DNA from: Escherichia coli
GTDB lineage: Bacteria > Pseudomonadota > Gammaproteobacteria > Enterobacterales > Enterobacteriaceae
Length of the DNA stretch: 64,000 nucleotides
Strand: one strand, 5' to 3'
NCBI RefSeq assembly: GCF_024502345.1
Contig: NZ_JALDNN010000001.1
Position numbers and translations under genes: made by a program. Every line of letters begins with the position of its first letter. Position 1 is the first letter of the stretch. Below, one piece after another: positions 1 through 19,053 of the stretch. The notes under the pieces were generated by a model that was not told where the DNA came from, ran no database searches, and worked only from the letters and a program-made list of their open reading frames with translations.

Positions 1-161
1 ATTGCTATCGATGTTTTACCATATGTATTGAACGATATTCCTAAATTTGAAATAGATAATGAAATGGAAGCTCGCATTTGTGCCAGGATAGTGATGGAAC
101 GTTTTAAGCAAGATGCAAGTAGGCATATTAATAAGTATATATCACGTTATGAAAATGTTAG

Positions 162-1356
162 GGAAGGTGCGAACAAGTCCCTGATATGAGATCATGTTTG
201 TCATCTGGAGCCATGGAACAGGGTTCATCATGAGTCATCAACTTACCTTCGCCGACAGTGAATTCAGCAGTAAGCGCCGTCAGACCAGAAAAGAGATTTT
301 CCTCTCCCGCATGGAGCAGATTCTGCCATGGCAAAACATGGTGGAAGTCATCGAGCCGTTTTACCCCAAGGCTGGTAATGGCCGGCGACCTTATCCGCTG
401 GAAACCATGCTACGCATTCACTGCATGCAGCATTGGTACAACCTGAGCGATGGCGCGATGGAAGATGCTCTGTACGAAATCGCCTCCATGCGTCTGTTTG
501 CCCGGTTATCCCTGGATAGCGCCTTGCCGGACCGCACCACCATCATGAATTTCCGCCACCTGCTGGAGCAGCATCAACTGGCCCGCCAATTGTTCAAGAC
601 CATCAATCGCTGGCTGGCCGAAGCAGGCGTCATGATGACTCAAGGCACCTTGGTCGATGCCACCATCATTGAGGCACCCAGCTCGACCAAGAACAAAGAG
701 CAGCAACGCGATCCGGAGATGCATCAGACCAAGAAAGGCAATCAGTGGCACTTTGGCATGAAGGCCCACATTGGTGTCGATGCCAAGAGTGGCCTGACCC
801 ACAGCCTGGTCACCACCGCGGCCAACGAGCATGACCTCAATCAGCTGGGTAATCTGCTGCATGGAGAGGAGCAATTTGTCTCAGCCGATGCCGGCTACCA
901 AGGGGCGCCACAGCGCGAGGAGCTGGCCAAGGTGGATGTGGACTGGCTGATCGCCGAGCGCCCCGGCAAGGTAAGAACCTTGAAACAGCATCCACGCAAG
1001 AACAAAACGGCCATCAACATCGAATACATGAAAGCCAGCATCCGTGCCAGGGTGGAGCACCCATTTCGCATCATCAAGCGACAGTTCGGCTTCGTGAAAG
1101 CCAGATACAAGGGGTTGCTGAAAAACGATAACCAACTGGCGATGTTATTCACGCTGGCCAACCTGTTTCGGGCGGACCAAATGATACGTCAGTGGGAGAG
1201 ATCTCACTAAAAACTGGGGATAACGCCTTAAATGGCGAAGAAACGGTCTAAATAGGCTGATTCAAGGCATTTACGGGAGAAAAAATCGGCTCAAACATGA
1301 AGAAATGAAATGACTGAGTCAGCCGAGAAGAATTTCCCCGCTTATTCGCACCTTCC
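162..1356 (+). mobile_element. IS5: IS5 insertion sequence, 1195 bp, flanked by 4-bp TTAG direct target duplications (158-161 and 1357-1360)
   Basis: Terminal inverted repeats GGAAGGTGCGAA at 162 and TTCGCACCTTCC ending at 1356; internal InsH transposase ORF; identical TTAG on both flanks. Confidence 0.95.
230..1210 (+). CDS. insH: IS5 transposase InsH
   Basis: Translation [12 protein letters not shown]...RQWERSH recognised as IS5 InsH. Track ORF starts 12 codons upstream at 194; start placed at MSHQ. Confidence 0.93.
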
Positions 1357-1775
1357 TTAGTGCAGGGGTGGTGATAATGGCGATGATACCTGTTTGGTTG
1401 CGTGATGTTATATTACTTCATGTTAATGAAATAGCTCATGTAATTCCTCCATCAACTAACACAGAAGATGTAGGTGAAGTCATATTTTTAGCCGAGAAGT
1501 TAAGCTATCCGCTACTTCCTGATTTTTAGTGTGAGTTAAAAGTTGATAGATCAAAAGTGTGTTTTTTTAGATTATATACTTGGATCCAAGCAGTGCTAAG
1601 GTTATTTCCTTAGCTCACTCATAACTAAATAGATATTTAGCTAGGGGGGACGATCAAACGTTAGCTCCTAGCTCATAACGGACGAACTGAGATATTTGTG
1701 CCCTGTAGAAGAGCACATCGACAGATAAAATTTCGACTGATACGGGGTTCGCTAACTGATGCCAGACAGGGCCAC

Positions 1776-2105
1776 TCAGTTCTTTTTCCCGGCCAGCATA
1801 TCAATCATCATGGGATAAATCTTTTCGCACTTCATGCCCGGATTCTGTACTGCGAAACTCCACCCCTCGTCCATCGCCGCAGCAACCTCTGTTGTTGAGG
1901 CTATGGGCCAATCGCTCACGGTGTCGTAGACTTTACTGATAGCCTTGTTCTTATCCATGCCGGTGTGTTGCTGCTGGCACATTCTGACCATTACTTCTGC
2001 GGCCTGAGCAGGCTGGCTTGCCGGGTAAGCAGCCAGCGCCGGGGCGGATGTCGTTGTGATGAGCAGTGCGGTAATAATATGCTTCTTTATTGTGTTACCC
2101 TTCAT
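1776..2105 (-). CDS. small secreted protein of unknown function (N-terminal signal peptide)
   Basis: 109-aa ORF with hydrophobic N-terminus ending ...PALAA; start overlaps stop of upstream ORF (2102-2105), suggesting an operon. Confidence 0.55.
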   Translation of the reverse strand: MKGNTIKKHIITALLITTTSAPALAAYPASQPAQAAEVMVRMCQQQHTGMDKNKAISKVYDTVSDWPIASTTEVAAAMDEGWSFAVQNPGMKCEKIYPMMIDMLAGKKN

Positions 2106-2620
2106 TGAACCTGAATGCCCTGAACCGGGCTATTGTCCCATGTCATCGGTCGGTCTTCCGGAATTGCCGGGGCACTGTTAGTGGCCGGTTTATCAACAAC
2201 AGGTTTCGCGCTGGCGGGAAGGTCATCTGGTGAAATAACTCGGGTTATCACACCCATCTTCTCACCAACAGCGGAGTTCATCTGATCGCAGAGGGTTTTT
2301 ATCTGGAGCCGGATACCGCTCTGGTTTATTCCTTCGCTTTTGAATTGCTGCTCAAGAATAAAGCGGTCCTGAAGGGAATGGTAATAGTTAATATTGTCCT
2401 TCGTTAATATCATGATGTTGCCGGTATTATCCTGATAGCGATTGCTGCGGATAAGTTTATCCAGTGCGGTTAAAGCCTCATCGCCAGTGTAACCATACTG
2501 GTGGCAGGTATTCAGGGTGGCATAAGCCTCATACAGCCCCTGCAAATTTTCTGCGGGGAGTGTTTTTGCCCCGGCACAACCTGAAAATGCCAGAAGCAAC
2601 ATAGCAGCGGTTTTCCTCAT
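2102..2620 (-). CDS. putative lipoprotein of unknown function
   Basis: 172-aa ORF; N-terminus MRKTAAMLLLAFSGC resembles a signal peptide with lipobox cysteine. Confidence 0.55.
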   Translation of the reverse strand: MRKTAAMLLLAFSGCAGAKTLPAENLQGLYEAYATLNTCHQYGYTGDEALTALDKLIRSNRYQDNTGNIMILTKDNINYYHSLQDRFILEQQFKSEGINQSGIRLQIKTLCDQMNSAVGEKMGVITRVISPDDLPASAKPVVDKPATNSAPAIPEDRPMTWDNSPVQGIQVQ

Positions 2621-17599: not shown

Positions 17600-17770
17600 T
17601 TGTTTATCTTTCTGATAATGGGGTTGTCCGTTAGCCAACCTGATATATTGCTTAAAGGGCTTGCCCGATGAGTGAGCCTTTGACGGGGCTTGATATGAAT
17701 TTGCGTAGAAGTTTTGGTATACTGTTTAAACGATGTCTTTCAGCCCAGATTCAACTTCTTAGGAGTGATT

Positions 17771-17941
17771 ATGAGCACCCACAAAAAAACTCAGGCAAGC
17801 TACGCTAAGCCATCTCGTGCTGACATTGTTCGCTCAGTAGCAACATCTACGGCTGTTGAAACAGGGCAGTCCTCCGCGAAGATCGAAGCTTCACTTGAAG
17901 CCACGCGCAAAAAATTTGCTCATTTGCGTCTTGCGGTTTAA
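17771..17941 (+). CDS. small protein of unknown function (56 aa), convergent with the Fic gene
   Basis: ATG preceded by AGGAG RBS 5 nt upstream; 3' end overlaps the Fic stop region by 4 bp. Confidence 0.5.
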   Translation: MSTHKKTQASYAKPSRADIVRSVATSTAVETGQSSAKIEASLEATRKKFAHLRLAV

Positions 17942-18555
17942 TCCCTTCTTAATGCTTCTCGCACCCAGTGTTTCATCGGCTCATAGTCCATTGATATGCC
18001 AGCATGGATGGCCGATATATACTGAGTTTTGTTTTGCTCCCAGCTTTGATAATCCAGCGGTTTGTATCCTCCCTGAACGGCCATCACGTCGGCTAGCAGT
18101 CGCGACAGGCGTCCGTTTCCCTCTCTGAATGGATGGATAAGTATTATCTCTACATGGGTTATGGCGATAGCGGTGATGAGTTGTTCTTCGTCCATGCCGC
18201 TACACGGTGTGTATTGAGCCAGATACTTAGTGTCGAATTCGTTCAGCAGTTTTGGCACCTGCGCTGAGGGGGCAAACATAAAGCCGCCTTTGCTAATATT
18301 CACCGCTCTTTCTTGTCCAGCCCACTCGTAGATGTTACCTAACCAGCGGCGATGCCAGCTTTTTAGCATGGCTACGCTGAGCTGTCCTTCCGGGAACTGC
18401 TCTTCAAAAACAGACTGGTAGAGTTGTTCTAACAGGACAAGTTCAGCCTCATCCATCTCATCAGAAGTCGCAATCCCCAGCTTATTAGCCAAAACCTGCT
18501 CGCCAGAGTCTTTCTCATACTGGCCTTCACTGCTGGATACATGGTATCGGCTCAT
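17938..18555 (-). CDS. Fic-domain protein (putative AMP-transferase)
   Basis: 205 aa with canonical Fic motif HPFREGNGRLSRLL. Confidence 0.85.
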   Translation of the reverse strand: MSRYHVSSSEGQYEKDSGEQVLANKLGIATSDEMDEAELVLLEQLYQSVFEEQFPEGQLSVAMLKSWHRRWLGNIYEWAGQERAVNISKGGFMFAPSAQVPKLLNEFDTKYLAQYTPCSGMDEEQLITAIAITHVEIILIHPFREGNGRLSRLLADVMAVQGGYKPLDYQSWEQNKTQYISAIHAGISMDYEPMKHWVREALRRD

Positions 18556-19053
18556 GGAGATGCCCTGTGTTATTAGAAGGAGGGGAAAACAGAGAGAGTA
18601 TAACGCTGGATGAGTACAGCAAACAATATTCTTAAAATCAGATAGTTACAAAAGTGTAGGTTAAAATGTATTTTTTATTCTCTGGTGGAAAATAATCTTT
18701 AATAATCAGCATTAACACACCAATGCATCATGGGCGTATGGGCGTCGAAATTTTCTATTGCACTCATGGGGTTATGTCCGGTTCCCTGATATTAAATGGG
18801 GTGTGATGGTTTTTATTTTCGTTGTAATCACATAAGGCGCACATGATACCGGAGTTAATCATTTCAGGGGAAGAAGCGAACGGCGAGTTCTTGATGTTGG
18901 TTCCGGGAAAGATGCTGTTTTGCAGCTTTTGCGTGATGCTTATGAAGCAAGTACGCAAAATTGCGTCGGTTGAATAAACCTCCTCCTTCAGAGCCATAGT
19001 CCCCTTTCAAATTAAGTTGTAGTATAAATACACCTTAAGAGTATGGAGGCAGT

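Follow-up and report, generated by a model that had tools for sequence, protein, structure and literature searches.

Positions 1-18,723 of a 64,000-nucleotide (nt) stretch of Escherichia coli DNA (contig NZ_JALDNN010000001.1 of assembly GCF_024502345.1; hereafter the window) are accessory DNA, and the backbone shared with E. coli K-12 runs from 18,724 onward. It is highly probable, in our view, that this accessory DNA makes up the larger, right-hand portion of a single site-specific integrative genomic island of the 'integrase-only' defence-island or phage-defence-element class, inserted into the coding sequence of the mismatch-repair gene mutS. The island is of an already catalogued type at a known hotspot, and both the site and the kind of island are known.

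The right boundary was placed at 18,723/18,724 by alignment to K-12, and window 18,724-64,000 was collinear with K-12 positions 2,857,136 to 2,812,346 at 98.0-98.6% identity with only small gaps. An earlier note on this DNA, made from the letters alone, had taken everything left of ~18.7 kb for horizontally acquired, mosaic accessory DNA on the mutS side of ygbA, and the alignment bore this out. In K-12 mutS lies next to ygbA, as that note had stated, at a distance of 286 bp. Its extent from position 1 held for the right end only, position 1 being the edge of the window; in near-identical genomes the island runs ~2.1 kb further left, up to mutS. The closest relative that lacks the insertion sequence IS5 was NZ_LR890349.1 (L001; 99.7% identical). 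When K-12 was aligned to L001 and the window, two blocks were obtained, the left one ending exactly at the mutS start codon (L001 5970-9877) and the right one beginning at window 18,724. The island measures ~19.7 kb plus 1.2 kb of IS5, which entered later, and its insertion point lies in mutS codons 12-14. The only transfer RNA (tRNA) genes of the window are at 57.7-58.6 kb; the target of the island is the mutS coding sequence and not a tRNA or transfer-messenger RNA (tmRNA) gene.

The K-12 mutS-ygbA site carries no island, and of 5,426 complete E. coli genomes 5 to 13 have the island: only 5 contain 80% or more of window 1-22,000, so that the segment is not conserved core, and only 13 have the island integrase beside mutS. 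The other relatives compared were further mutS-site islands of E. coli (L002, L003), an E. coli island between yicC and dinD (L005), and islands from Salmonella (L031), Salmonella Newport (L032, L033), Aeromonas (L034, L035) and Lelliottia (L008).

The evidence for site-specific integration lies at the two junctions with mutS, of which the right one is in the window:

18724-18767, minus strand: right attachment site (attR), the native first 44 nt of mutS, identical to K-12 and detached from the gene (K-12 alignment)
18768-19407, plus strand: native mutS-ygbA intergenic region and ygbA (19054-19407), where the K-12 backbone starts (K-12 alignment)

The first 44 nt of mutS were present at both ends of the island as an imperfect 44-bp direct repeat with an identical core of 8-11 bp, where the number of chance matches expected for a 44-mer is 0. 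The shared crossover core, TGCATCAT(GGG), lies at 18724-18734, and TGCATCAT is the stretch identical in all copies of the attachment (att) site compared (L001, L002, L003 and Lelliottia L008). The left site (attL; L001 9834-9877, outside the window) differs from attR at 7 of 44 positions and is fused to the remainder of mutS; the sequence expected there by a single-island model is TGCATCATGGGGGTGTGCGAGTCTAAATTTTCTATTATACTCAT. Translation of the junctions showed that MutS begins with MSIIENLDSHTPMM at attL instead of the native MSAIENFDAHTPMM, with the reading frame rebuilt, and mutS is intact at the left junction of L001. The left junction supplies island DNA upstream of mutS plus a look-alike gene start. 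The attL/attR pairs were alike in L001, L002 and L003, and L008 carried a host-specific attR. A search for att-like repeats, which the earlier note had proposed for 18,560-19,050 and 6,480-6,580, succeeded in the former interval (18,724-18,767) and found no copy in the latter.

Since the native intergenic region and the start of mutS are kept at the right junction and the mutS reading frame is rebuilt at the left, the island DNA, as the junctions read, is an insertion and not a replacement. Of the two events that the earlier note had allowed, insertion was confirmed and replacement was not, as no K-12 sequence is missing: the full 286-bp intergenic region follows attR directly, and the first 44 nt of mutS are retained. 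The stranded mutS ATG opens a 22-codon chimeric open reading frame (ORF) from 18767 down to 18699, ~140 bp upstream of fic and on the same strand. The former mutS promoter region now faces fic, which may be transcribed from it; a consensus promoter scan of the fic region was uninformative. Between attR and ygbA, a small coding sequence (CDS) annotated in relatives (window 18843-19022) has an in-frame stop codon in the window sequence.

A tyrosine integrase of 426-427 amino acids (aa) lies 218 bp from the mutS ATG in L001, L002, L003, L031 and L032, outside the window, and Arm-DNA-bind_3 and Phage_integrase domains were found in that of L031 and L032. This edge integrase is a P4-type tyrosine integrase, and it would have placed the island inside mutS codons 12-14. 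A perfect 18-bp palindrome, CCTACATTTAAATGTAGG (L001 9973-9990), lies in the 217 bp of island DNA that separate the mutS and integrase starts; the integrase or a regulator may bind there. Immediately upstream of the rebuilt mutS ATG, the island sequence shows a resemblance to the native mutS leader (GGACAT..AC..ATG).

PHROGs searches with the window proteins returned only the integrase, excisionase, regulator and transposase categories, with no capsid, tail, terminase or lysis genes, and a prophage identity was rejected for want of phage structural genes. A single intact prophage, the outcome by which the earlier note would have been refuted, fails literally on this ground and holds in spirit, given one integrative island. 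Neither packaging nor capsid-remodelling genes (terS, ppi, cpm, capsid) were found by PHROGs or Pfam, and MobI or relaxase families were not found in PADLOC, NCBIfam and Pfam scans of the island proteins. Compared with phage-inducible chromosomal islands (PICI), the order of recombinase, divergent gene, AlpA and Rep-like gene is present, but the boundaries of the element belong to a different integrase.

Inside the island a second tyrosine recombinase follows a RadC gene, a DUF2787 gene and a remnant of a toxin-antitoxin locus:

4714-5202, plus strand: RadC/JAB family protein (NCBIfam NF000642, 157 bits; TIGR00608, 139.6 bits, above cutoff)
5290-5721, plus strand: DUF2787 protein (PHROG 13741, 1.5e-39; DUF2787 annotation in relatives)
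5724-5757, no strand: deletion scar where the YeeU/CbeA antitoxin gene is missing (the homology map jumps from 5724 to 5757 while L002 runs from 9943 to 10373)
5865-6482, plus strand: in-frame CbtA-DUF905 fusion ORF, 205 aa (Pfam CbtA_toxin, 7.6e-38, model positions 1-111 of 112; DUF905, 2.8e-26)
6577-7524, plus strand: Xer-like tyrosine recombinase, 315 aa (XerC/XerD-type matches below family cutoffs; PHROG integrase, 1.6e-38)
7525-7705, no strand: conserved non-coding stretch with the inverted repeat AAGTACGA...TCGTACTT (alignment and consensus fold)

The recombinase matched the canonical Phage_integrase family (PF00589) along with Xer-type families, and not Integrase_1. It has at least 783 homologues, and the 120 listed with a source name came from Enterobacterales and Aeromonas. 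The gene was internal in L005 and L031-L035 without exception. The segment from the CbtA piece through DUF905 to the recombinase was kept as a unit at 88% identity in L002 and Salmonella L031, both at mutS, and at 72% in L005, where the site is yicC-dinD and the edge integrase is another one. CbtA is absent from S. Newport L032/L033 and Aeromonas L034/L035, where RadC or DUF2787 directly precedes the recombinase and a small divergent gene, AlpA and other conserved genes come after it; the P4-type integrase lies at either outer edge of this core. Because the recombinase keeps its RadC/DUF2787 neighbours in relatives that lack CbtA, the comparison identifies it as an internal backbone gene and the CbtA-DUF905 piece as an accessory insert, and the earlier use of CbtA as a mark of an element's end could not be upheld. 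A phase-variable hsdS shufflon driven by the recombinase was also considered and rejected, as there is a single hsdS gene with no inverted repeats within it.

The YeeU/CbeA antitoxin is annotated at the position of the scar in L002, L005 and L031, and the same 205-aa fusion is called as one gene in L031. The CbtA/CbeA pair is incomplete in the window, with the toxin fused to DUF905 and the antitoxin absent; a near-complete CbtA toxin domain persists without its antitoxin. The 180 nt after the recombinase stop were more conserved between islands at different sites than the recombinase gene itself, and the inverted repeat shows one compensatory change in L005. Homology between islands ends right after this stretch, at ~7700 (breakpoints at 7700 against L002 and 7682 against L005). 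The stretch had no Rfam match, and no known RNA families were found in window 1-19,500 (Rfam scan, E <= 0.1). It is a candidate recombination or resolution site, origin, or small RNA.

A homology map was made against four related islands, and the GC content was computed for each of its blocks:

1671-5724: block A, GC 0.52, ~87% identity to L002 and L005
5757-7700: block B, GC 0.585, 88% to L002 and 72% to L005
7701-11614: block C, GC 0.50, not shared beyond this island version in the four-island comparison
11615-17597: block D, GC 0.42, 98% to L003 and 74-83% to L005
17598-18723: block E, GC 0.46, 97-98% to L002 and L003
core: GC 0.54

Homology breakpoints fell at ~5724/5757, 7700, 11615 and 17598, and the alternating GC blocks that had been seen by eye were reproduced (0.42 to 0.585 against 0.54 in the core). 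Three scars accompany them, namely an hsdR 3' remnant, the missing YeeU antitoxin gene and IS5. The first ~75 nt of block E are the decayed 3' end of the hsdR that occupies the cargo slot of L002, and a 39-aa remnant of hsdR type lies between ptuB and fic in Lelliottia L008. The comparison indicates that the mosaic look is the product of exchange of cargo and accessory cassettes between related islands. An hsdR remnant of L002 type directly after the ptuB stop shows, by alignment, that a complete Type I system stood here before the present cargo took its place.

The cargo of blocks D and E comprises the following genes:

11923-13458, plus strand: HsdM, type I methyltransferase subunit, 511 aa (PADLOC MTase_I PDLC03026, 3.4e-190)
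13458-15143, plus strand: HsdS, type I specificity subunit, 561 aa (PADLOC Specificity_I, 7.6e-114)
15153-16757, plus strand: PtuA, Septu ATPase, 534 aa (PADLOC PtuA PDLC00293, 2.2e-215, full length)
16757-17599, plus strand: PtuB, Septu HNH nuclease, 280 aa, its start overlapping the ptuA stop (PADLOC PtuB PDLC00343, 1.2e-99, full length; start agrees with the RefSeq CDS in L001)
17598-17672, plus strand: decayed hsdR 3' remnant, last ~25 codons (~75 nt) (alignment to the L002 hsdR 3' end shows a 10-bp deletion and stop codons)
17771-17941, plus strand: conserved small ORF, 56 aa, convergent with fic with a 4-bp overlap (171-bp CDS annotated in L001, L002 and L003)
17938-18555, minus strand: Fic/DOC protein, 205 aa, with an intact HPFREGNGRLSR motif (PADLOC PDC-S04, 1e-101; motif read in the translation)

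Together with IS5, the CbtA-type remnant, the recombinase and AlpA, these genes account for the features named in the earlier note (hsdMS and Fic among them), all of which were found by ORF, family and relative comparisons. hsdM, hsdS, ptuA and ptuB are codirectional, with gaps of at most 9 nt or overlaps, and the adjacent PtuA and PtuB form a Septu system. A further match of PtuA, below the family cutoff at 8e-48, was TIGR04435, 'restriction system-associated AAA ATPase'. The Fic protein is the PADLOC candidate single-gene defence system PDC-S04, and NCBIfam Fic families scored below their cutoffs. The 56-aa ORF had no family match. Weak cross-matches to mad1, mad2, mad3 and mad5 prompted a check for a MADS system, and membership was rejected on score (MAD2 89 against a NCBIfam cutoff of 720, MAD5 51 against 400, MAD3 28 against 420), the Type I and Septu models scoring far higher.

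The type I restriction-modification (R-M) genes consist of HsdM and HsdS only: no HsdR was found in the 64-kb window by tblastn with four HsdR proteins, and what is present is the remnant of a different hsdR. In 25 loci with close PtuA relatives in reference genomes, hsdM-hsdS directly precede ptuA-ptuB wherever upstream sequence is present. Where HsdM is ~50% identical to that of the window, an HsdR of ~1,170 aa is usually encoded close upstream of hsdM. In 10 further loci with the HsdM type of the window (74-88% identical), no HsdR was found within the available flank of 6.5-10 kb per side; these are L003, L005, L006, L008-L010, L013, L014, L020 and L032. The genera with the R-less four-gene unit are Escherichia, Salmonella, Providencia, Lelliottia, Acinetobacter, Trabulsiella, Advenella, Vibrio and Enterobacter, and the large ORFs neighbouring the R-less cassettes are not restriction enzymes. 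Because HsdR is lacking around it in so many loci, the R-less hsdM-hsdS-ptuA-ptuB cassette is, on comparative grounds, a recurrent unit and not a one-off product of decay. The Septu pair is always joined to hsdMS in this subfamily, one branch of which lacks hsdR, and this arrangement suggests a functional coupling of Septu with hsdMS.

Between the recombinase and the cargo, block C holds the gene for an AlpA-family protein and two genes whose products have predicted replication-type folds:

7824-8339, minus strand: 171-aa protein, divergent from alpA (non-homologous 164-172-aa proteins at the matching position in relatives)
8546-8752, plus strand: AlpA-family DNA-binding protein, candidate activator of excision or transcription (Pfam Phage_AlpA, 6.4e-07; PHROG 66 and 2790, 'excisionase and transcriptional regulator')
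8833-9948, plus strand: 371-aa protein with the predicted fold of a rolling-circle replication initiator (Rep_trans, RepD type)
10302-11786, plus strand: 494-aa protein predicted to have a winged helix at its N-terminus and, after it, a family-A polymerase-like domain

Alignment-based AlphaFold models were confident, with predicted local distance difference test (pLDDT) scores of 85.5 for the 371-aa protein and 87.5 for the 494-aa protein. In the predicted structures the 371-aa protein shows the Rep_trans fold, and the 494-aa protein shows the palm, fingers and thumb fold with the carboxylates of motif A and motif C. Tyrosines Y69 and Y209 are invariant among homologues of the 371-aa protein, and the motif-A-like and motif-C-like catalytic-type residues of the 494-aa protein are invariant as well. 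By sequence, the 371-aa protein had no Pfam or PDB match and the 494-aa protein had no match to family A polymerases in Pfam, NCBIfam or PDB, its sole match being PHROG 30690, a family with no assigned function. Sequence-profile searches of PDB with the two alignments returned nothing meaningful. The 171-aa protein had no match in Pfam, NCBIfam, PADLOC or PHROGs, and these four libraries gave neither the 371-aa nor the 494-aa protein a function.

Homologues of the two larger proteins number from dozens to hundreds each in Enterobacterales; nearly all are called 'hypothetical', and one homologue of the 371-aa protein is named 'Replication initiation protein'. The 494-aa protein has at least 148 homologues; of the 120 listed, none has a Pfam domain or a functional name, and all the named ones are from Enterobacterales. 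Its nearest viral structures were uncharacterised proteins of Dickeya and Erwinia phages. Counterparts in S. Newport stand at the same position, with 24% identity for the 371-aa protein and 53% for the 494-aa protein, and by this conserved placement block C is not random cargo. The models point to a hidden replication module made up of a Rep_trans-like initiator and a small family-A-polymerase-like protein.

A possible life cycle can be put forward from these parts. AlpA would switch on excision by the P4-type edge integrase; if the models are right, the Rep-like protein would nick the excised circle to start its copying, assisted by the polymerase-like protein; and the Xer-like recombinase would resolve multimers at the conserved site adjoining its gene. 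Because no transfer or packaging genes are present, a helper would be needed, and a phage or conjugative element could serve for transfer from cell to cell. After integration mutS would be transcribed from island-supplied DNA, and fic might be read from the stranded mutS promoter. More broadly, it is conceivable, though we put it forward only tentatively, that 'integrase-only' islands of Enterobacterales are self-replicating, episome-forming elements that combine a Rep_trans-like nickase, an enzyme of winged-helix and family-A-polymerase-like make-up and an Xer-like resolvase with its site; that Septu replaces HsdR in them as the nuclease arm of a methylation-based check of self and non-self; and that the state of the island modulates mismatch repair.

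Several points weigh against a single, functional integrative island. The integrase, attL and mutS lie outside the window, and their presence in this strain is deduced from genomes that match it at 99.7% identity in the part they share. For the replication roles the basis is predicted folds, which align at 11-15% sequence identity and come with no family match at the sequence level; the recombinase may alternatively act as a second integrase or an atypical relaxase. In the island DNA upstream of mutS, a scan with a simple sigma-70 consensus returned no promoter. Neither an excised form nor a sister strain with an empty site was seen, nor any activity, and IS5 and the fused toxin gene represent some decay, so that this copy of the island may no longer move. 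This decay is the starting point of a rival explanation, that of an immobile remnant: an old CP4-like cryptic element fixed in the lineage, whose mosaic look arose from deletion and IS activity. An interrupted gene, a fused toxin without its antitoxin, an hsdR remnant, a Type I system without its R subunit and the absence of any transfer, packaging or known replication family detected by sequence would all suit it. Yet the recombinase, AlpA, Rep-like and polymerase-like ORFs are intact and recur at 50-88% identity in many Enterobacterales, and the catalytic-type residues of the polymerase-like protein are invariant. The same backbone at several att sites in several genera requires recent mobility, and presence in only 5 to 13 of the E. 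coli genomes also speaks against this reading; we regard a remnant as very unlikely.

The earlier note had instead suggested two elements in tandem with a junction at 6,480-6,580, a CP4-like one ending at the CbtA remnant at ~6.5 kb and a second one starting with the recombinase at 6,577 and carrying AlpA, the R-M genes and Fic. CbtA-type toxins do lie near the distal end of CP4-type elements in K-12, the left end of a satellite or PICI-type element has a similar order of recombinase, small divergent gene, AlpA and Rep-like gene, the GC content shifts around 7.5 kb, and L003 has the cargo without the left module or the recombinase. But no third att copy was found in the window for the 44-mer (<=3 mismatches), the 11-bp core had no further exact copy, and no direct repeats bracket 6.5-18.7 kb, with only short chance-level pairs in 1-19,100. 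The proposed junction is conserved at two chromosomal sites with different edge integrases and in Salmonella; where CbtA is absent the recombinase still directly follows RadC/DUF2787, with the P4-type integrase on either side of the core. The left and right halves co-occur at mutS, at yicC-dinD, in Salmonella and in Aeromonas. L003 is the single exception, and an IS3 at its breakpoint, in the place of the absent module, suggests a deletion. The tandem proposal was not sustained and now has scant plausibility. An unlikely explanation, though one with some points in its favour, is that the Xer-like and Rep_trans-like proteins form an atypical relaxase or nickase; together with an origin of transfer (oriT) this would turn the island into an integrative mobilisable element able to hijack a conjugative plasmid, in the way SGI1 uses MpsA, and not one that chiefly replicates. 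Proteins with the Rep_trans fold are relatives of MOB_T relaxases, and a conserved, hairpin-containing non-coding stretch adjoins the recombinase gene. SGI1-type islands use a tyrosine-recombinase-like relaxase of 321 aa with oriT beside its gene, and the insertion sites of their relatives are yicC and the 5' end of dusA (PMC8409611). Against this, the recombinase has no detectable similarity to MpsA, being a canonical Phage_integrase protein and not of Integrase_1; its identity as an MpsA (PF12835) relaxase was rejected, the best BLASTP E-value against the MpsA of IMEVchUSA3 (taken from the supplement of PMC8409611) being 0.53. The scans described above found no MobI or relaxase family, and no island ORF is large enough for a TraG or TraN homologue: in a comparison of length only, the largest has 561 aa against ~1,145 (TraG) and 968 (TraN) alignment positions in the phylogenies of PMC8409611.

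A single integrative island agrees with what has been described at this locus. The mutS-ygbA site is listed as defence hotspot #8 of E. coli, with 27 of 1,322 genomes occupied, and dinD-yicC as hotspot #2 (Hochhauser et al. 2023, PMC10121019 S1 Table); 'integrase-only' islands of unclear mobility have been described there (PMC10121019). fhlA-mutS is an island hotspot across Enterobacteriaceae and the locus of pathogenicity island 1 (SPI-1) in Salmonella (PMC7232297), and insertions bearing Type I R-M genes have been noted beside mutS in Salmonella (PMC3569456). The present island shares with those of hotspot #8 and the 'integrase-only' class the flanking core genes, the low occupancy, an integrase and a recombinase with defence systems, and the lack of recognisable transfer genes. 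It differs in that the hotspot was mapped between genes (PMC10121019) whereas here the insertion is inside the mutS coding sequence, and in that two 'hypothetical' backbone genes have predicted replication-type folds. These predicted folds offer a testable answer to how 'integrase-only' defence islands propagate.

Elements that enter the start of a housekeeping gene offer the closest parallel to the junctions. In dusA-specific elements such as IMEVchUSA3, the island supplies a promoter and the N-terminus (Durand et al. 2021, PMC8409611), and in this group (see also Farrugia et al. 2015) an attP (the attachment site of the element) with a diverged copy of the gene start provides the N-terminus and upstream DNA, as is the case here. 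Here, however, the target is mutS, the integrase is unrelated, there is no similarity to MpsA, and a mutS promoter supplied by the island is only putative. SpyCIM1-type islands at the 5' end of mutL in Streptococcus pyogenes are likewise mobile islands at the start of a mismatch-repair gene, but SpyCIM1 separates mutL from its expression signals and causes a mutator phenotype, whereas here the mutS frame is rebuilt and inactivation is not expected. Integrase clades that target the 5' part of mutS have been reported, with inactivation suspected (Mageeney et al. 2020, PMC7192596); the present case argues against it. With island DNA in place of the gene start, the expression of mismatch repair in carriers would depend on sequence brought by the island, and by analogy the state of excision could be coupled to expression of the repair gene.

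Islands I23, I44 and I55 at the tmRNA gene of Pseudomonas encode IntY, AlpA, RadC and an inovirus Gp2-like protein and are transduced by a jumbo phage (PMC12595487). They resemble the present island in the tyrosine integrase at the edge, AlpA, RadC, helix-turn-helix (HTH) proteins, a rolling-circle-type initiator, variable defence cargo and the lack of autonomous transfer genes. They differ in host clade, target site and initiator family (inovirus Gp2-like there, a Rep_trans-like predicted fold here), and an internal Xer-like recombinase and a polymerase-like protein were not reported for them. The K-12 elements CP4-57 and CP4-44 also have a P4-family integrase, AlpA, RadC (YeeS/YfjY-like), DUF905 and a CbtA-family toxin, but the present island is not targeted to a tRNA or tmRNA gene, its toxin is fused to DUF905 and lacks the antitoxin, and its other genes differ. 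As for known defence systems, PtuA, PtuB, HsdM and HsdS are full-length, strong matches to Septu and Type I R-M, from which the cargo departs in having no HsdR in the 64-kb window.

The remaining features of the left module, between the window edge and RadC, are as follows:

1-161, plus strand: upstream part of an AT-rich hypothetical gene of 294 aa, GC 0.32, interrupted by IS5 (aligns to L001 12001-12167, inside the CDS L001 11446-12330)
162-1356, plus strand: IS5, 1195 bp, transposase ORF 194-1210 (99.6% identity to K-12 IS5A over 1195 bp; PHROG transposase, E = 9.6e-175)
1361-1529, plus strand: downstream part of the interrupted gene (aligns to L001 12158 onward, 99.7%)
1776-3200, minus strand: three small backbone genes, of 109 aa (1776-2105), 172 aa (2102-2620, signal-peptide-like N-terminus) and 175 aa (2673-3200) (annotated CDS in L001, L002 and L005)
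3213-3482, minus strand: Ner/Nlp-like winged-helix regulator, HTH_35 (Pfam HTH_35, 4.8e-26; PHROG 769 transcriptional repressor, 1.5e-31)
3604-4691, plus strand: two backbone genes, of 126 aa (3604-3984) and 180 aa (4149-4691) (counterparts by length and position in L031 and L035)

IS5 is flanked by a 4-bp target duplication, TTAG, at 158-161 and 1357-1360, and its inverted repeats were also read directly; the IS5-free site in L001 reads gaaaatgttagtgcagggg. The start of the interrupted gene falls left of the window, and its product had no NCBIfam or PADLOC match. Most proteins of the left module received no functional assignment from Pfam, NCBIfam, PADLOC or PHROGs, and the 109-, 172- and 175-aa proteins had no PADLOC or NCBIfam matches. 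A gene of the same length as the 175-aa one is present at the matching position in L031, L032, L033 and L035, as judged by length and position only. For the 126-aa protein, one transposase PHROG and one repressor PHROG were weak matches.

In the slot opposite, across the backbone, L033 (1-5834) carries conflict-type genes (SMC_N, MComp1, Trypsin_2-CTD4 and Lactamase_B), and L035 (1-5236) carries a Trypsin_2/AAA_16 protein of 1,919 aa. Because of these conflict-type genes, the backbone may have two cargo slots. Outside the island, the alignment to K-12 showed gaps at window 40924-41036, near norW/hypF, and at 53467-53658, near recA/pncC, which probably reflect variation in intergenic repeats.

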